Made by a program: the position numbers and the translations under genes. Shown piece after piece: positions 1-36,964 of a DNA stretch of 47,406 nucleotides. The stretch comes from a virus. Its lineage: Duplodnaviria > Caudoviricetes. The DNA is taken from positions 1 through 47,406 of the IMG/VR virus record IMGVR_UViG_3300024951_000014; one strand, given 5' to 3'. The notes below the pieces were generated by a model. That model was not told the origin of the DNA. It saw only the letters and a list, made by a program, of their open reading frames with translations, and did not search any database. Numbering within the stretch: position 1 is the first letter of the stretch; each line of letters starts with the position of its first letter.

Positions 1-1002
1 CTAATTGGAAAGCGTGCCTTGGATGATCCAAGAAATCAGCTCGTTTTCCATTACGTGAGAATCGTAGAAGAACTGCAGCCGAAGTATTGTGTTTTTGAGA
101 ATGTCAAAGGGCTGACTCTTGGAAAGCATTCGGAGTTTCTTAAAGAGCTCATTGCGGCTCTCGGTGACGCCGGTTATGACGTAGTGCTCCCGTATCAGGT
201 GCTCAATGCCGCGGATTACGGGGTACCGCAGGATCGAAAACGACTTTTTTTGATGGGCACAAAGCGCGGGCTCAAAGCTCCTCATTACCCAATGCCTCTC
301 GATCATCGAGTGACAGTAGAGGAAGCGATTGGGGATTTGCCGGATGCAAACACGTTTGCTGAATTGGTCGCAACTGACGCTGTCAGGGCGAAATGGACAA
401 CCAATTCATCATATGCACAACGTCTTCGTGACCAGCAGGATGATCCAAGCGATTTTGGCTATAAGCGTGCGTTCGACCAAGACCTGCTGAGTTCGAGCTT
501 GCGTACGGAGCACACAGCTCTGTCCCAGGAGCGCTTCATGGCTACAGAACATGGTAAGACCGAGTCTGTTAGTCGTTTCCGTAAGCTGCCCCCAGACGGC
601 CTATGTAACACGTTACGTGCCGGCACGGACAGCGCTAGGGGGGCTTTCACCTCTCCGAGACCGATCCACCCTTATCAGCCACGCGTTATAACCGTCAGGG
701 AAGCCGCCCGGCTGCACTCGTTTCCTGATTGGTTTCGTTTTCATGCGACTAAGTGGCATGGATTCCGTCAAATCGGCAACAGTGTTCCACCACTGCTAGG
801 TCGGGCAATAGCCTCGTCGATAGTAGAAGCTCTTGAAATTAAGCCGACAAAACCTCGCCGGATTCTTGATCAGGGATCAACCACGTTGCTCGGTTTGGAT
901 ATGGGGAACGCGGCACGCTATTTTGATGTGCCGCGTGACACCATCGCTCAGCGGACACGCAAAAATGTCGCATCCTCACTAATGGAAGAGACAGATGCCT
1001 GA
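1..1002 (+). CDS. DNA (cytosine-5) methyltransferase, 5'-truncated by window edge
   Basis: Frame open from base 1 (LIGKRALDDPRN, the segment that follows motif IV). Motifs VI FENVKG, VIII QDRKR, IX TVREAARLHSFP and X QIGNSVPP are present. Confidence 0.93.
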   Translation, partial: LIGKRALDDPRNQLVFHYVRIVEELQPKYCVFENVKGLTLGKHSEFLKELIAALGDAGYDVVLPYQVLNAADYGVPQDRKRLFLMGTKRGLKAPHYPMPLDHRVTVEEAIGDLPDANTFAELVATDAVRAKWTTNSSYAQRLRDQQDDPSDFGYKRAFDQDLLSSSLRTEHTALSQERFMATEHGKTESVSRFRKLPPDGLCNTLRAGTDSARGAFTSPRPIHPYQPRVITVREAARLHSFPDWFRFHATKWHGFRQIGNSVPPLLGRAIASSIVEALEIKPTKPRRILDQGSTTLLGLDMGNAARYFDVPRDTIAQRTRKNVASSLMEETDA

Positions 1003-1807
1003 GGGTAAAAAGGTTCGCCGGCCGAACCGTTACGAAGCAATTATTGCGAAGATCTTCGATAATAATTACAAAGAGGGGCTGAGCGAGTTTCAGTTTTCTC
1101 GCGCGGAAATTTCGGCGATTGCTGATGAGTTGAAGATCGTTTTGCCGAAGAATATCGGAGATATTATCTACGCTTTCCGCTATCGGTACGAGCTGCCAAA
1201 GTCAATTTTAGAGACCGCGGAAGAAGGAATGGAGTGGATAATTAAAGGCTCCGGTTCGGCTCTCTATAAATTTAAAAAGGTAAAGCTAAACCGTATACTT
1301 CCTCGCGAAGAACTGATCACTATCAAGGTGCCGGATGCGACGCCAGAGATAATCAGTGCTTACGCCTTGAGTGATGAGCAAGCTCTGCTCGCTAAGGTTC
1401 GATACAATCGTTTAATTGATATTTTTTTAGGTATTACTGCCTACTCCTTGCAAAATCATCTCCGTACTCATGTCAAAGCGATTGGTCAGATCGAAATTGA
1501 CGAGGTCTATGTCGGAATCGACAGGCATGGCCGGCAGTTTGTCGTGCCGGTGCAGGCGAAAGGAGGGAGTGATAAGCATGGTGTAGTGCAGACCGATCAA
1601 GACATTGCTTATTGTAAAGCCAAGTTTCCTGATCTTGTCTGTAGAGCAGTGTCGGTCCAATTTATGACTAATGGACGAATAGCGATGTTTGAACTTACTG
1701 TTCAGGATGATGAGGTTAAGGTGGTAGAGGAGAGGCACTACCAACTGGTAAGCGCCTCATCAATTACTGTCGATGATTTGCGAGCGTATTCTTCGCACGG
1801 TAACTAG
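995..1807 (+). CDS. Putative type II restriction endonuclease (PD-(D/E)XK fold)
   Basis: Overlaps the MTase stop. QIEIDEVY...VPVQAKGG resembles a PD-(D/E)XK catalytic motif. AT-richer than the phage core. Confidence 0.72.
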   Translation: MPEGKKVRRPNRYEAIIAKIFDNNYKEGLSEFQFSRAEISAIADELKIVLPKNIGDIIYAFRYRYELPKSILETAEEGMEWIIKGSGSALYKFKKVKLNRILPREELITIKVPDATPEIISAYALSDEQALLAKVRYNRLIDIFLGITAYSLQNHLRTHVKAIGQIEIDEVYVGIDRHGRQFVVPVQAKGGSDKHGVVQTDQDIAYCKAKFPDLVCRAVSVQFMTNGRIAMFELTVQDDEVKVVEERHYQLVSASSITVDDLRAYSSHGN

Positions 1808-3158: not shown

Positions 3159-3919
3159 GCTGCCTCCTTGTCAGCTAGCGGAGAGCAATTCGAATGCTCC
3201 CGCAGCCACGACTGGAACCTGTCCGTTGCCGAGGGCCTTAAGTCGGTCCACCCGATAGGCCATCCCATCAACCACTCGACCCATTCCGGGTTCAGATGAC
3301 CACCATCCAATGCCATCACTGCGTGATCGAGCCGATCGTTTGATCGGTCTGCCCCCGATTTTCGAATTAGCGCGGCAGGGGAAGATCCTTTTGACATGCT
3401 CGCCACGGGCGTTGGCCACCGACTGGCGGGTGTCTTCTGCGATGAGCCAGATCCGGTTTCGCTGGTGAGGCGCTCCGAAGTCAGCCGCTCCGATAACACC
3501 CCATCGCGCGTCATACCCCATTTCGGTAAGGTCACTGAGCACGACGGCAAGTCCTCTTCCCACAAGCAATGGTGAGTTCTCCAGTTCGACGTAGCGCGGT
3601 CGTACTTCATCGGTAATTCGTGCCATCTGCCGCCACAGTCCGGAGCGGGCGCCTGCGATGCCCAAACCGTTGCCTGCGGCCGAGATGTCCTGGCAAGGAA
3701 ATCCTCCCGAAACCACGTCAACAAGGCCTCTCCATGGCCGTCCGTCAAAGCTGCACACGTCAGACCAAATCGGGAAAGGCGGGAGCAGTCCATCGGTTTG
3801 TCGTTGCGCCAGAATCTGTGCGGCGTAGGCATCACGCTCAACAGCGCAGACGGTGTGCCAGCCGAGGAGGTGGCCGCCGAGTATTCCGCCACCAGCGCCT
3901 GCGAAAAGAGCCAGCTCAT
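3155..3919 (-). CDS. Overlapping-frame beta polypeptide of the phage C5 MTase (TRD-like region plus motif IX)
   Basis: WPTP and LNPEWVEWLMGWPIGWT (motif IX-like). Its stop overlaps the xis start (ATGA) and its tail carries an AAGGAG RBS. Confidence 0.72.
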   Translation of the reverse strand: MSWLFSQALVAEYSAATSSAGTPSALLSVMPTPHRFWRNDKPMDCSRLSRFGLTCAALTDGHGEALLTWFREDFLARTSRPQATVWASQAPAPDCGGRWHELPMKYDRATSNWRTHHCLWEEDLPSCSVTLPKWGMTRDGVLSERLTSERLTSETGSGSSQKTPASRWPTPVASMSKGSSPAALIRKSGADRSNDRLDHAVMALDGGHLNPEWVEWLMGWPIGWTDLRPSATDRFQSWLREHSNCSPLADKEAA

Positions 3920-3923
3920 TCAC
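3171..3923 (-). CDS. Phage C5 DNA methyltransferase, alpha polypeptide (motifs I-VIII, X)
   Basis: LFAGAGG (I), GGFPCQD (IV), LENS (VI), HQRNR (VIII) and RLKALGNGQVP (X); motif IX is absent. Confidence 0.88.
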   Translation of the reverse strand: MNELALFAGAGGGILGGHLLGWHTVCAVERDAYAAQILAQRQTDGLLPPFPIWSDVCSFDGRPWRGLVDVVSGGFPCQDISAAGNGLGIAGARSGLWRQMARITDEVRPRYVELENSPLLVGRGLAVVLSDLTEMGYDARWGVIGAADFGAPHQRNRIWLIAEDTRQSVANARGEHVKRIFPCRANSKIGGRPIKRSARSRSDGIGWWSSEPGMGRVVDGMAYRVDRLKALGNGQVPVVAAGAFELLSAS

Positions 3924-5733: not shown

Positions 5734-6324
5734 TCACGCAGCGTGTGCGGCAGGTGTCGCCGCAGCAGCCAGGTGGTTGATGGACTCCACGACCTTGCCG
5801 TAGATCTCGACATCCGTGCCGCACACGGTGAAGCATTTCGTACGCGGGCTCTTCACTCCGATGCTCAGGATGGTGGTGACGCCAGGGCGGGTGTGGGTGC
5901 GGTGGATCGCGACGTGGAGTGGTAGTTCGAAACCCATGTCGAGGCTCAAGGTGCCGCCGGTGATGACCAGCTCGAACACGCGCTGCCTGTCCTGAAGATC
6001 AAACCGGCCGTATTCGCGCTTTGTGTGGGGCAGGTAAGACAGATCACCTGTGTTGCTCGGTTCGAACGGGCCGTTGGCGATTTCTTCGATGAAGTCGGCC
6101 AGCTTGAGGTGCATCTTCTTTTCGTTGTTCAAGGTCAGCGTGTGGCGTTCGCTGCCCAGTTCGACGACGAAGGTGCTTTCCTTTGTGCCATGTTCAACCT
6201 TGAGACGGAACGCTAGGCGTTCACGCTTGGGCATTGTCCGAAGGACGTGATTGAAAGTCTCGGTCAGGTTGACCTGAGCATTCAGCAACTGCAGGGTGCG
6301 GTTGTCGAGTTTGAATTTGCTCAT
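5734..6324 (-). CDS. Hypothetical phage protein
   Basis: 196-aa ORF in the early operon. Confidence 0.7.
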   Translation of the reverse strand: MSKFKLDNRTLQLLNAQVNLTETFNHVLRTMPKRERLAFRLKVEHGTKESTFVVELGSERHTLTLNNEKKMHLKLADFIEEIANGPFEPSNTGDLSYLPHTKREYGRFDLQDRQRVFELVITGGTLSLDMGFELPLHVAIHRTHTRPGVTTILSIGVKSPRTKCFTVCGTDVEIYGKVVESINHLAAAATPAAHAA

Positions 6325-6497
6325 GCTGCGTGCCCCCCACCATTCGGGTCGAATGGCGCGGGAGCGGTGCGGGCTTTCGGCTTCGGTTTGGTGGTGGCAA
6401 ACGGGCAGCCGTATTCGCGGGCAAGGCGGCGAATTTCGAAGATGCGGAAGGGGTCAGCAGCGGCTGGATGGACATGTAAGGTGGCTGTGGTGTGCAT
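6321..6497 (-). CDS. 58-aa first gene of the pL operon (MHTTATLHVHPAAADPFRIFEIRRLAREYGCPF...)
   Basis: GAGG RBS and ATGA overlap with the next gene. Not in the ORF track. Confidence 0.6.
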   Translation of the reverse strand: MHTTATLHVHPAAADPFRIFEIRRLAREYGCPFATTKPKPKARTAPAPFDPNGGGHAA

Positions 6498-6532
6498 GGT
6501 GTTGCCTCGCTCTGTGGTGGAGAGTGAGGCAA

Positions 6533-6582
6533 ATATTAACCATAAAGGTTAACTATGCAAGAAAAAATAACCTCCTGGGTGT
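6533..6582 (-). promoter_or_regulatory. pL/oL: sigma70-like promoter with CI operators
   Basis: TTGCAT(6560-6555)-16 nt-TAATAT(6538-6533). Operators TAACCATAAAGGTTA (6537-6551) and TAACCTCCTGGGTGT (6568-6582) match those between cI and cro. Confidence 0.7.
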
Positions 6583-7943
6583 TATGAGGCTGAGCTGTTC
6601 GTTGCCAGGTCTATCAGCAATTCACGTGACTGTCTGTCTATTCGTTTTTTAAATTCGTACTCAATTTCTTCGTCAGTTAGACCGGTTATATTTTTATTGA
6701 AGTAGTCCGTTAGTACGGCCTGCATCTGAGGAATGGTGTATTTATCAAAATTTGGTACATAGTTTGTAATGTGGCGGCGTCGATTAATTTCATAAAAAGC
6801 CCTAACAAAACTTTTTGGTGTTATTGGCGCTTTAAATCTCTTTACTAATCGGTCGACATATAAATCTAGTTGATGAAGCAGTTTTTCGTCATCGATTTCA
6901 GAAAAAAAGAACAGCCAACCTCGGCTCTTTTCTTGAAAGACACATCCCGTAATTCGCATGTTCAGGCGCCAAGTTAAAAAGTCTAGACTTTTTATTTTTG
7001 AATGTTTGTAGCCTGTAAATATCGAGGCAAGCGAGTCTTTTAATTTTTCAATGGAGCCAGAGCGGGCAGTGGTGATAGGGGTGTCAACTTTTTTAATTAT
7101 TTCGTTTCGGAATTCATAGCCTAAGTAGTCAAATTTTTCACCCAGCTTGCCCATGGAGGATTTATGAGGTGCCTCAATAGGGTCGTGGACTTGAAGTCCA
7201 ATGGATTTAAACTGATGAACGATTTCCTTCGCAATGTTTTCTTTATTGGTGTCGTTGCATAAAATTAGAATGTCATCGACGTAACGAAAGTATTGTGCGT
7301 CTGGTAGCGTGGAGAATTTTTTATCGATGTTTATTAGGTAGACTGCAGCTAGTACATTAGAGATGGCCAGCCCTTGTGGTACGCCTATGGTATTGGCAGT
7401 ATCAAATGAGCTGGATTTGCTAACGGTTGGTGTTGAAATAGCATTGATAATAAGATTAAGTATTATCGGAGAGCGAATTTTTGATCTCAGTCTTTTTAGA
7501 AGTTCTTCATGAAGAACCGTTGGGTAAAAATTACTTACATCTAATTTGATAAAGCTATCGTATTTTCCGGAGTCAACACAATTTTTTACAATGCGGACGG
7601 TATCTTGAGGAAGCTGAAACGAAATCGAAGACTGATATGTGTGCATTAAAACATCACAAAGAGCTCGCAGGCATATCCGATCACGAATTGTAGGGATCGA
7701 TATCTCACGGGGAGATTTTCCTCTGCCTTTGCTAACGAGTTTTAATTTGTACTTTGTAAACGCATATGTTCCGGCTTTCGCTTTTCTTGATGTAATGGCA
7801 ATTTGCTCTTTGAGCAGGCGCCAGAATTGTTTTTGGGTTAAGTTGTCAATGCCGGTGGCACGAGAAAGTACAATATGTTCGGCATAGATTTTTTTCAGGT
7901 TTTTAGTGCTGAAAGCTTTGTTGAAGTGAGCCTTGGCGCTCAT
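6582..7943 (-). CDS. Defence-associated reverse transcriptase (UG17/DRT10-like)
   Basis: SKGRGKSPREISIPTIRDR, KLDVSNFYPTV, GVPQGLAISNVLA, YFRYVDDILI and FDYLGYEF. No retron NAxxH/VTG motifs and no intron maturase/EN domain. Confidence 0.88.
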   Translation of the reverse strand: MSAKAHFNKAFSTKNLKKIYAEHIVLSRATGIDNLTQKQFWRLLKEQIAITSRKAKAGTYAFTKYKLKLVSKGRGKSPREISIPTIRDRICLRALCDVLMHTYQSSISFQLPQDTVRIVKNCVDSGKYDSFIKLDVSNFYPTVLHEELLKRLRSKIRSPIILNLIINAISTPTVSKSSSFDTANTIGVPQGLAISNVLAAVYLINIDKKFSTLPDAQYFRYVDDILILCNDTNKENIAKEIVHQFKSIGLQVHDPIEAPHKSSMGKLGEKFDYLGYEFRNEIIKKVDTPITTARSGSIEKLKDSLASIFTGYKHSKIKSLDFLTWRLNMRITGCVFQEKSRGWLFFFSEIDDEKLLHQLDLYVDRLVKRFKAPITPKSFVRAFYEINRRRHITNYVPNFDKYTIPQMQAVLTDYFNKNITGLTDEEIEYEFKKRIDRQSRELLIDLATNSSAS

Positions 7944-8515
7944 GTAGAGGTCCCTATTTCCATCGCAAAAAACATCCCGATTGGCAGTAAATACAAAATT
8001 GTCAAAGCGGTGCAGCGTTTAAGGTAGTAAAAAATAACCTTTAACCAAATAAAACAAGTCGGATGTTTGGTTAGACCGCGGCGATGATGTTTTGGCGAGG
8101 GGTGGGAAAGATACGTGTCGCAGAGAGTAATGCAGTAGTCAATATCTTCGTGGTTTTCGCAGCTTTTCAGAATCTCTTGATATCGTATGTTGATTTTTGA
8201 GATATCTGCATCCGCCGCCTTTGCTTGTGTATAAAGTTCTTGCAGGCTTTCATAGCATTCTTTTATCAGGTTGGCCCTTTCTTTGTAAGATAGTCCATTA
8301 ATGAACCCTGAAATACTTAAGATTAAGACTGAAAAGGCAACCCATGATACGTTCGCATAACTACTGGCTGTGGCTTTTAGGTAGTATACAGATACAGCTG
8401 CTGATAAAAATGAATACCAAATTAGAAGCAGTTGCGCTTGAAAGGCATTAGCGAGTAATCGTTTTTCTGCTTGAATTCTGGATTTGCGGGTCCACCAAAT
8501 GTTGTCTGCGAACAT
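7940..8515 (-). CDS. SLATT-domain transmembrane effector (SLATT_5-like)
   Basis: IWWTRKSRIQAEKRL start, two TM helices, YKERA..IKECY, ENH..IDY and a C-terminal TM. AAGGA RBS; ATGA overlap with the RT. Confidence 0.82.
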   Translation of the reverse strand: MFADNIWWTRKSRIQAEKRLLANAFQAQLLLIWYSFLSAAVSVYYLKATASSYANVSWVAFSVLILSISGFINGLSYKERANLIKECYESLQELYTQAKAADADISKINIRYQEILKSCENHEDIDYCITLCDTYLSHPSPKHHRRGLTKHPTCFIWLKVIFYYLKRCTALTILYLLPIGMFFAMEIGTST

Positions 8516-8535
8516 TTGTAAAAATTCCTTTTTTA

Positions 8536-8670
8536 TGGAAGGTGCGATGGGGTGCCGATTTTAGTTAAGAGTGTAACGCTCGTTTCCGAGCAAGCCCGAA
8601 AGCTAAGAGCCGAAGCCCTTCGTAATTAGTTGCACCCATTTCTGGATGGTCGAGTTACCAACACACCCCA
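8536..8670 (-). ncRNA. Putative RT-associated structured ncRNA
   Basis: Three adjacent hairpins (AAGGGC-UUCG-GCUCUU, AGCU-UUCG-GGCU, GCUCG-GAAA-CGAGC) enclosed by GGUGC/GCACC and an outer GGUGUGUUGG/CCAUCGCACC helix. Ends are approximate. Confidence 0.72.
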
Positions 8671-8744
8671 AAGCGCTTCTTTTTTACCTTGAACGGGGGT
8701 GAAATGCCAGTATTTTTTGAGAGGAATTTTCAATGCATTTGGAT

Positions 8745-9392
8745 TCAAAGGTCTGAAATTTTCCATCGTGCTCTCCCGCAGATCGTCCATTCTTCTGACA
8801 TTCGGATGATTCGTTCGGGCCAATCTGGATTAAGCGCGAACAGATACTGCTCTTCGCCTTCTTGTTTCAGCTGTTTGAGCGTTGCTGCTTGATCTCTGGT
8901 TCGTTTAGCTGCAACGAAATGGCCCGGCATTGCCTCAAGAGAAGGGTCGATCACGATCTTATCTCCCTCCATAAATTTCGGTTCCATGCTAATCCCTTCG
9001 ACCCGAAGAATAAATGCATGAGGACCGACGGGGCCTGGTGCATCTATCCATTCTTCAGCATCTCTTGGATCGAAAGTGCCATGAGCCTCGCACCAGGCAC
9101 CTGCTGCGATTGATCCTATAACTGGCAATTTACGCCCAGTGTGACTTAGCACTGTGGCGTTGTTGAATTCACCCAATCCGTAGGGCATATCGAGATAGCC
9201 GCTGTGAAGTCCCAAAGCTTTTTCTATCTCGCGGGCAATTTGATCGCCGATACCTTTTGTGGGGTTTTTACCGCCGAAAGCACTCACTTGAGCCGGTGCT
9301 TTGCCCAAAAGGTCAGCCAGGTCAGTCAGGCGAAGCTTTTTCTCAGCCAAGACTCTGCGGAAATTTTGAAGACGCGTATCTGAGATTTTCAT
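8745..9392 (-). CDS. cI: CI-like repressor (HTH plus S24 peptidase)
   Basis: N-terminal HTH, IAAG cleavage site, VEGISMEP (Ser) and ATLKQL (Lys). Confidence 0.93.
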   Translation of the reverse strand: MKISDTRLQNFRRVLAEKKLRLTDLADLLGKAPAQVSAFGGKNPTKGIGDQIAREIEKALGLHSGYLDMPYGLGEFNNATVLSHTGRKLPVIGSIAAGAWCEAHGTFDPRDAEEWIDAPGPVGPHAFILRVEGISMEPKFMEGDKIVIDPSLEAMPGHFVAAKRTRDQAATLKQLKQEGEEQYLFALNPDWPERIIRMSEEWTICGRARWKISDL

Positions 9393-9397
9393 CAGGT

Positions 9398-9470
9398 GAT
9401 TCTGGCTAAATTAACCTTCTAGGTGAATGTCCATGTAGGTATTGCAAAAAATAACCTATATGGTTAAATT
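9398..9470. promoter_or_regulatory. oR region: pR, possible leaderless pRM, CI operators
   Basis: pR TTGCAA(9442-9447)-17 nt-TAAATT(9465-9470). Operators TAACCTTCTAGGTGA (9412-9426) and TAACCTATATGGTTA (9452-9466). cI lacks an RBS and has CAGAAT 6 nt before its ATG. Confidence 0.68.
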
Positions 9471-9490
9471 TGGTGTCGGAGGTACACCAT

Positions 9491-9724
9491 ATGAAGGTAC
9501 GCGATTATATAAACCGTTTGGATTCTGGGGCACTCATGGCCTACGCCGAGCGTTGTGGCATTGCTGTGAGCTATCTGCGACTCCACGTCAAATATGCGAG
9601 TAAAGATCCTAGCGTGTCGTTGATCAAGTCATTGGCCCGAGAGAGCGAAGGTTGCGTTTCACTTGCAGAGGTACTTGAGCATTTTGGTATCACAGAAACA
9701 ATTCCCGCATCCAAAGCAGCATAG
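9491..9724 (+). CDS. cro: Cro-like repressor
   Basis: Small HTH protein divergent from cI; GGAGG RBS. Confidence 0.78.
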   Translation: MKVRDYINRLDSGALMAYAERCGIAVSYLRLHVKYASKDPSVSLIKSLARESEGCVSLAEVLEHFGITETIPASKAA

Positions 9725-9818
9725 CTAGAAAAAAGGCGACCAAAAGGCCGCCCAGTTTCTCCCGGCACGCACCACCACAGCGCTGTCGGGTCGCAGTAAA
9801 GGAAGGCGGGCACACCAC

Positions 9819-36152: not shown

Positions 36153-36169
36153 TAAAGGTCTTGCTCTCA

Positions 36170-36964
36170 ATGTCCACACCCATCATCCCTTGGATGGGCG
36201 GCAAACGCCGCCTGGCCGATCGCCTCATCCCGCTTTTTCCACCACACGAATGCTACGTCGAAGTCTTTGCCGGCGGTGCCGCGCTGTACTTCATGCGTCC
36301 CCAGGCCGCGCCGGTTGAAGTCCTCAACGACATCAACGGCGACCTGGTCACGCTGTACCGCGTCGTGCAGAACCACCTCGAAGAGTTCGTGCGCCAGTTC
36401 AAATGGGCGTTGAGCTCGCGCCAGGTGTTCGAATGGCAGAAGATGACCCGCCCTGAAACCCTCACCGACATCCAGCGCGCCGCCCGATTCTTCTATTTGC
36501 AGCACCATGCCTTCGCCGGCAAGGTCACCGGACAAACGTTCGGTACCGCGACCACCGGCCCGGCCATCAACCTGCTGCGGATCGAGGAAAACCTCTCGGC
36601 CGCCTGGCAGCGTCTATCGGGTACTTACGTGGAAAACCTGCCCTGGCTTGAATGCGTCGAACGCTACGACCGTGCCCACACCTTCCACTACATGGACCCG
36701 CCTTATTGGCAAACCGCCGGCTATGGCGTGGACTTTCCGTTTGAGAACTACGAGCGGATGGCCGACTTCATGCGCCGATGCAAAGGCAAGGTGATGGTCA
36801 GCATCAACGATCACCCGGATATCCGGCGAGTGTTCGAGGGGTTCCACTTTGAAACCTTGGATATCCGTTACACCACCACTAATCAGCGGCAGGGAAAGGC
36901 CGAAGTCAGTGGTGAGCTGGTGATCATGAATTGGGAGCCGGCGGCGTTGGGCGGACTGTTCTGA
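36170..36964 (+). CDS. DNA adenine methyltransferase (D12/Dam-like class)
   Basis: W.GGKR, YVEVFAGG, LNDIN and MDPPY. Confidence 0.93.
   Translation: MSTPIIPWMGGKRRLADRLIPLFPPHECYVEVFAGGAALYFMRPQAAPVEVLNDINGDLVTLYRVVQNHLEEFVRQFKWALSSRQVFEWQKMTRPETLTDIQRAARFFYLQHHAFAGKVTGQTFGTATTGPAINLLRIEENLSAAWQRLSGTYVENLPWLECVERYDRAHTFHYMDPPYWQTAGYGVDFPFENYERMADFMRRCKGKVMVSINDHPDIRRVFEGFHFETLDIRYTTTNQRQGKAEVSGELVIMNWEPAALGGLF

Follow-up and report, generated by a model that had tools for sequence, protein, structure and literature searches.

The closest described relatives of the locus treated here are the DRT10 antiphage systems of Escherichia sp. E3659, of subtype UG17-A (Sanchez-Nieto et al. 2026, 10.64898/2026.04.29.721553), Eco1DRT10 (Tang et al. 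2025, PMC12632851; Ramirez et al. 2026, 10.64898/2026.06.29.735271) and Eco3DRT10 (the same two sources, and Chen et al. 2026, 10.64898/2026.10.08.757509, on the H120 system). As these accounts describe the homologues, reverse transcriptase (RT) and RNA form a 2:1 complex that primes on protein and adds repeats; all three parts of the system are needed, exonuclease I exerts control and a phage protein resembling the single-stranded DNA-binding protein (SSB) acts as trigger. The DNA analysed here, called the window, is the whole 47,406-nucleotide viral record IMGVR_UViG_3300024951_000014 of IMG/VR. Its minus strand carries, in this order, a non-coding RNA (ncRNA), a gene for a SLATT_5 protein and an RT gene of the UG17 group. 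This cassette is very probably a DRT10 system, tentatively of the Eco1-like/UG17-A type, likely to protect the lysogen against other phages by protein-primed tandem-repeat DNA, with predicted TAAGAGTGT repeats broken by GT slips. Judged from its sequence, it is an intact copy of this already published system; its parts and their order, its family, the conserved fold of its RNA, its conserved essential residues and the limits of the slot that it fills were directly observed. As the system itself is known in structural detail, the copy adds little surprise, and the slot, a cargo hotspot between the repressor gene cI and the early-left promoter P_L, is a better lead than the DRT10 copy itself.

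The reverse transcriptase and its SLATT partner

The two protein-coding genes of the cassette are the following.

6582..7943, minus strand: UG17 reverse transcriptase gene (453 aa; YVDD at residues 221-224)
7940..8515, minus strand: SLATT_5 membrane effector gene (191 aa; SLATT_5 in Pfam and NCBIfam)

The RT matches the PADLOC model RT_UG17 with 537 bits (E 6e-162) over profile positions 1-427 of 429. The next-ranked PADLOC models are Drt3a (131 bits), a generic RT model (124 bits) and Drt9 (50.9 bits). In the UG17 search, 1495 of 7999 scored proteins reached E<=1e-40. The product of the smaller open reading frame (ORF) scores 96 bits with Pfam SLATT_5 (cut-off 29.5) and 150.5 with the NCBIfam model (cut-off 60), has hydrophobic windows beginning at residues 53-59 and 167-171, and its stop codon overlaps the RT start in an ATGA. 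The GC fraction is 0.40 across 6498-8744 against 0.60 in the phage backbone (9401-38000). A first-pass annotation, made from the letters alone, had seen here an AT-rich block with a SLATT transmembrane protein and an ATGA-coupled 453-residue YVDD RT, for which it favoured DRT10/UG17 over DRT9; all of this holds, and placement with the PADLOC hidden Markov models puts the RT in UG17. The same annotation had ascribed SLATT linkage to UG17 and UG28 RTs alike, which stands for UG17, whereas UG28/DRT9 RTs are reported to be only rarely SLATT-linked (7/124; PMC9226505).

It is extremely improbable that the RT represents a DRT9-, DRT3- or retron-type system or the remnant of a group II intron. Weak profile matches to these families do occur, and a sequence search of the PDB gave 11 weak matches, none to a UG17 RT; group II intron RTs lead them, with no better than E 5e-12. 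These models nevertheless score at least 400 bits below UG17 and stay under the curated NCBIfam cut-offs (group II intron, 133 against 300; Drt3a, 113 against 200; retron St85, 50 against 235; the Drt2 model is also below its cut-off). The annotation had seen no hallmarks of retrons, introns or DGRs. Retrons have an msr-msd layout; the St85 score sets the RT outside the retron clade. DRT9 (UG28) was rejected on its model score and because the RNA has no poly-U template loop, as the annotation had also remarked, its longest U run being 3. DRT3 (UG3 plus UG8) requires two RT genes, and the record holds a single RT match over its 47,406 bases. As for a group II intron, no Rfam family is found at E<=1 across 6300-9600.

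The RT of a fetched relative, locus L184, was used as a stand-in for Eco3: it has 456 aa and the Eco3 template motif, and was chosen because N197, R371, K385, Y388 and the terminal S456 stand at the numbers published for Eco3. These five residues align to N196, R369, R381, Y384 and S450 of the window RT. The YVDD motif and the RNA-anchoring residues N196, R369, R381 and Y384 are thus intact, and the residues essential in Eco3DRT10 are kept, with K385 replaced by R381. At the C-terminus, S450 lies opposite the Eco3-type S456 and S451 opposite the E3659-type tyrosine, and the tail is 2-3 residues longer. Tyr is the last residue in 57 of 117 full-length RTs (120 minus three shorter ones) and Ser in 55; each of the 117 has S, T or Y among its last five residues. 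The longer, serine-rich tail is common to the ten closest relatives P0003-P0012 (73-88% identity; one ends in G). In a tree of 61 rows, whose retron outgroup sits on a very long branch, the RT falls within a clade of nine with 100/100 support, and the Eco3-type RTs form a separate 100/100 clade.

Named RT relatives at 80-82% identity come from Pseudomonas aeruginosa, P. alloputida and P. soli. Across 401 genomes of the genus of locus L001, an RT match at E<=1e-60 was present in nine, always at 55% identity or less. No RT match was obtained in cultured phages at E<=1e-30, and blastn against E. coli genomes gave no match.

The template RNA and its predicted product

Upstream of the SLATT gene, the following RNA elements are proposed.

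8549..8669, minus strand: DRT10 ncRNA core, Eco1-like six-stem form (121 nt; from fold, covariation and homologues)
8669-8663/8555-8549, minus strand: stem-loop (SL) 1, the basal stem
8662-8649, minus strand: SL2
8648-8633, minus strand: SL3
8632-8621, minus strand: loop A (12 nt)
8620-8605, minus strand: SL4
8604-8593, minus strand: SL5
8591-8578, minus strand: SL6
8577-8556, minus strand: loop B (22 nt)
8566..8574, minus strand: predicted template A-B, ACACUCUUA, with predicted complementary DNA (cDNA) unit TAAGAGTGT; starts after SL6 and GUU
8572-8571, minus strand: predicted slip site, an internal AC adding GT
8564..8565, minus strand: predicted re-annealing site A' (AC), its first base 10 nt from SL1, as in E3659- and Eco1-type loops
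8681..8710, minus strand: predicted own promoter of the ncRNA, CTGGCA-N18-TAAAAA, with a start expected near 8674-8676

The RNA 8669-8549 is a basal stem around five hairpins and two loops, with stem pair probabilities mostly of 0.7-1.0. The 124-nt core 8547-8670 folds better than any of 200 shuffles (z -3.4), and the entire 241-nt leader only modestly so (z -2.0; 9/200 as good). The structured leader of the first-pass annotation is narrowed here to its core, 8549-8669; about 8675-8744 would belong to the promoter and not to the RNA. When 15 homologues are aligned plainly with MAFFT, 88% of cells pair, and changes on both sides are seen in 20 of 33 pairs; none of 500 shuffles reaches the observed level and slid structures pair at 34-45%. 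These controls overstate significance, given that the structure was derived from the window itself and that the sequences share ancestry. A covariance model built on this alignment gave 28 matches in 70 sources: one in the window, 14 in loci used for training and 13 in held-out loci, of which three are near-copies of training rows. All 27 locus matches lie upstream of an RT on the same strand. The 42 sources without a match include the Eco3-type loci L163 and L184. Loops A and B are pseudo-symmetric, both carrying AACUAA followed by equal spacing to the next stem. The RNA is identical at 107 of 121 positions to that of locus L112, which by eye matches the row of P. monteilii BCN3 in Table S2 of Tang et al., classed there as Eco1-like. 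The loops of L024 and L112 stay open in predicted folds, unlike loop B of the window.

The ncRNA is probably made from its own promoter. A promoter-like element lies 11-12 nt before the RNA match in 4 of 27 loci (L024, L111, L112 and L001), L112 being a locus without a cI match. A strict consensus scan returned one site against 5.8 expected, and none upstream of the ncRNA.

The first-pass annotation had called the product of the RT unknown; it is predictable in principle from the template loop. According to the DRT10 papers, distance to the stem-loop before it fixes the 5' template boundary, and re-annealing relies on an A-B-A' pattern; in Table S2 of Tang et al., the template directly follows GUU in Eco1-, Eco3- and E3659-type loops. 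Applied by script to L184, this rule returns the published product, GAATCATTG, and for L143 it yields AATAAGT, which is the published AGTAATA in rotated form; as the rule was read from these very systems, the agreement (2/2) is a consistency check and not an independent test. In the window, AC-ACUCUUA-AC stands right after the boundary stem-loop, a pattern whose 2-nt match is weak alone and rests on its conserved position. The rule allows two registers here, a shift of 9 adding TAAGAGTGT and a shift of 2 adding GT. For L024 and L112 it predicts AAGAGTGT (8 nt) and GAAGAGTGT (9 nt), both with the same GT slip. Provided that the cassette is active, we thus lean towards the 9-mer TAAGAGTGT with GT slips as its product.

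The short A-A' homology, only 2 nt, speaks against a regular 9-mer, as does the pairing of the two registers: the shift of 2 pairs 4/6 Watson-Crick plus wobble and the shift of 9 only 2/6, so that the clean 9-mer may be a minority product. The cDNA end could then re-anneal two bases back, not nine, and the same DRT10 system would make mainly poly(dT-dG) or GT-rich mixed DNA. We consider this unlikely. The pairing advantage is alike in the window, L024 and L112, and Eco1, which has the same ACAC start, is described as making frequent poly-(dTdG) tracts. The Eco1 product, however, is reported to keep an 8-nt periodicity despite them, and the AC and its 8-nt spacing to SL1 are constant in the window, L024 and L112 although B differs, which suggests that the far re-annealing site is used. 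It is rather improbable that the repeat is instead the 7-mer TAAGAGT, derived from ACU-CUUA-ACU, as the automatic scan of Tang et al. lists for a homologue with this loop (row ACUCUUAACU for UG17_locus_93 in their Table S3). Its A-A' match is 3 nt long, and E3659 is reported to use ACU...ACU with a 7-nt period; but the RT would have to halt 2 nt before the SL6 boundary, whose geometry in Eco3 is rigid, and a scan with a 3-nt minimum cannot list 2-nt A elements such as that of Eco1. It is therefore ranked below the 9-mer. The three natural variants, with predicted units of 9, 8 and 9 nt (TAAGAGTGT, AAGAGTGT and GAAGAGTGT), offer a sharp test of the published boundary rule in a new host lineage.

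Drawing on the homologues, the working of the cassette could be pictured as follows. It is probably expressed in lysogeny, as it occupies the slot between cI and P_L. One pseudo-symmetric RNA would take up two RT molecules, of which the one on loop B would prime, probably from a C-terminal serine, S450 or S451, and would copy 8574-8566 as far as the SL6 boundary held by R369. The cDNA would re-anneal at the AC 8565-8564 and the cycle would repeat, giving kilobase-long single-stranded DNA covalently tied to the RT; loop A would yield only short products. Host exonuclease I would keep the amount of this DNA under a threshold; a phage factor interfering with the handling of single-stranded DNA (the SSB-like protein in the E3659 system) would then tip the balance and SLATT would be activated, cell death being the assumed outcome. 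A search of the window with a narrow pattern returned no ORF ending in an acidic tail of the SSB type. As a native, single-copy, prophage-borne DRT10, the locus provides a route to triggers among Pseudomonas phages and to how a prophage avoids its own system.

Several points weigh against this picture. The RT tail extends 2-3 residues beyond the usual priming position, and priming geometry is described as strict in Eco3. For the RNA on its own, folding predicts a 4-bp hairpin in loop B (8564-8577) that covers the linker and A', about 75-90% paired. Of the UG17-A/Eco1-like features, the SLATT-RT order and the match to an Eco1-type RNA model are present, but the 31-row group that unites this RT with the E3659-type RT in our own tree has a support of only 91/94, short of the starred level. 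The published accounts disagree on whether cDNA rises or falls upon infection, and the triggers that they report come only from E. coli phages. The hairpin over A' and a tail longer than in most homologues might mean that the cassette, intact in sequence, is weak or silent in this prophage because priming is impaired. This is distinctly improbable: all ten closest relatives P0003-P0012 have the same tail, the hairpin is only 4 bp long, and synonymous codon differences to L024 outnumber non-synonymous ones in both the RT (217 against 73) and SLATT (77 against 39) genes.

The slot between cI and P_L

The slot is bounded by control elements of the prophage.

8745..9392, minus strand: cI-type repressor gene with S24 peptidase domain (Pfam Peptidase_S24; PHROG 4, transcriptional repressor); left slot boundary
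6568..6582, no strand: operator-like palindrome touching the RT stop codon; right slot boundary
6533..6560, minus strand: predicted early-left operon promoter P_L (TTGCAT-N16-TAATAT); overlaps another operator-like site, 6537-6551
9412..9466, no strand: two further operator-like palindromes (9412-9426 and 9452-9466) between cI and a divergent small gene

The cassette lies in the gap between the cI stop codon and the predicted P_L operator, which corresponds to the position of rexAB in lambda. The palindrome occurs four times in the control region of the window, and 2/100 shuffles are as good, a statistic that is not independent because the motif was read from the window. To delimit the slot, 93 relatives were found by a cI scan and the best 80 kept; 69 are anchored by one or more conserved downstream genes, and the other 11 reach contig ends or have another gene order. 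The strict operator-like motif is present in the right flank of 61 of the 69. Inserts open with the base that follows the cI stop and close at the operator-like palindrome, and empty sites join both within 3-5 nt. According to the empty relatives, the span 6582-8744 given by the first-pass annotation coincides almost exactly with the natural limits of the cassette. At 769-2909 of L112, the same cassette (77% DNA identity) has different flanks, no cI match in the locus and a conserved promoter-like element. Judging from this copy, the cassette moves as a unit.

The slot, which is 6583-8744 in the window and was followed through loci L029-L105, carries cargo in 66 of the 69 anchored relatives and is empty in three; over all 69, the median gap is 1531 nt, with a GC fraction of 0.41. 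The inserts encode 89 proteins (47 clusters) on either strand relative to cI and represent 33 cargo types, counted over loci that were not dereplicated (L028 is the same prophage as the window). By hand tally with one representative per cluster, 18 of the 33 types match PADLOC models at E<=1e-5, a raw rate, uncorrected for background, that includes unspecific ATPase matches. They comprise PD-T7-3, AbiTii, PARIS-like pairs, a type VI retron RT, a methylase pair, NsnA/GmrSD, AbiC, several PDC candidates and DRT10, the last found both in the window and in a relative whose RT is 84% identical (L024/L037, L111). Another type matches the DS-1 antiphage pair; of its genes, one passes the cut-off and the other falls just short of it. 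Nine types have no match in PADLOC, Pfam or NCBIfam. The commonest cargo, in 9 of the 66 filled slots, is a protein of 316-367 aa co-oriented with cI (L029:6677-7702, L053, L058, L069, L071, L075, L079, L083 and L088). Its representative has no match in PADLOC, Pfam or NCBIfam, and in the ESM Atlas it finds only unnamed clusters at 0.94-0.98, with weak nuclease-like leads under the bar; it is a candidate new defence gene. Two loci (L066:6677-8768 and L082:6694-8773) carry a dCTP-deaminase-like and an FMN oxidoreductase-like protein. In two others, L064:6667-8059 and L101:6653-8141, the slot houses a second RT-based system, a type VI retron-like RT and its small partner.

Defence genes downstream of cI are known: rexAB of lambda, BstA (PMC8585504) and RexABpp of the P. 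putida prophage P1 (PMC12894663) likewise follow the repressor directly, with cargo unrelated to DRT10, and the same two papers call the region between cI and N in lambdoid phages a hotspot of mosaic diversity. The literature listings searched contained no account of the cI-P_L slot for these phages, which is weak evidence that none exists. It seems to us about evenly balanced whether the stretch between the cI stop and the first P_L operator forms an undescribed antiphage hotspot of a widespread Pseudomonas prophage group, with several of the nine unmatched cargo types, above all the 316-367 aa family, being new defence systems, and with the DRT10 lineage being a natural Eco1-like, serine-primed form with a GT-rich product. 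Its precise limits make the slot a place in which to look for unnamed defence genes.

The window, a provirus, carries genes for integrase, excisionases, cI, cII, primase, terminase, head, contractile tail and lysis, and host genes such as a LysR regulator stand at its right end. The host is presumed to be Pseudomonas because the RT relatives at 80-82% and the cultured cI matches at 70% are from Pseudomonas or its phages. The best of these cI matches, the CI-like repressors of Pseudomonas phages Turba and Lodos (70.7%), belong to phages that share cI with the window but differ in the left arm and have no such cargo.

No terminator was found after the RT gene, whose stop touches the operator-like site (6568-6584), so that, unless bound repressor or the leader hairpin halts them, transcripts of the cassette could continue into the early-left operon. 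This hairpin, in the early-left leader (6498-6530, minus strand), has a CCACCAC loop and is conserved in most relatives; CACCAC also occurs in the gap before cII (9770-9780, plus strand). Beyond the integrase, a C5 cytosine methyltransferase gene and a 270-aa gene without library match (19-1807, plus strand) are likely a restriction-modification pair. Two more DNA methyltransferase genes lie inside the prophage (3171-3923, minus strand; 36161-36964, plus strand).

Comparison with described DRT10 systems

The first-pass annotation had regarded the locus as a Pseudomonas prophage-borne variant. The prophage setting is confirmed and the host assignment is probable, but the lineage is already catalogued: Tables S1-S3 of Tang et al. 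list UG17_locus_64 (Pseudomonas monteilii BCN3) and UG17_locus_93 (Pseudomonas sp. NKUCC02_KPG), with 453-aa RTs of the same lineage and nearly identical RNAs, the latter having the same template and A' as the window. As far as these rows tell, both were catalogued computationally only; six extra homologues were tested in that work. A full-text search of literature since 2025 for DRT10 and Pseudomonas returned one review only, and preprint supplements could still name a tested Pseudomonas homologue. Among the fetched loci, the E3659 template motif occurs in L143, L144 and L148 and the Eco3 motif in L163 and L184; none carries the Eco1 motif.

With Eco3DRT10, as published, the window shares a serine aligned to the priming position, and N197, R371 and Y388 are identical, K385 being replaced by R. 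The two differ in that RT identity to L184 is only 40%, the Eco3 RNA is described as five-stem, the Eco3-type RTs form their own clade and the Eco3-template loci escape the covariance model. E3659 DRT10 is reported to have the same ncRNA-SLATT-RT order with a stop/start overlap, a six-stem RNA, a template that begins after GUU and an A' 10 nt from SL1; the RT is 55% identical to that of L143, a locus with the same template loop as E3659, matched by its motif and not by accession. In contrast, the unit predicted here is 9 nt with 2-nt homology, against 7 nt with 3-nt homology in E3659, and the RT tail ends in serines where that of E3659 ends in tyrosine. Eco1DRT10, in the accounts of Tang et al. 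and Ramirez et al., likewise has six stem-loops with loops A and B, a template starting with ACAC, 2-nt A and A' elements, a cryptic GT slip site and 8 nt between A' and SL1. It is reported to make an 8-mer interrupted by GT tracts. Its B segment differs, giving AATCGTGT where TAAGAGTGT is predicted for the window, and it primes on Y444, whereas the window RT has no tyrosine near its end.

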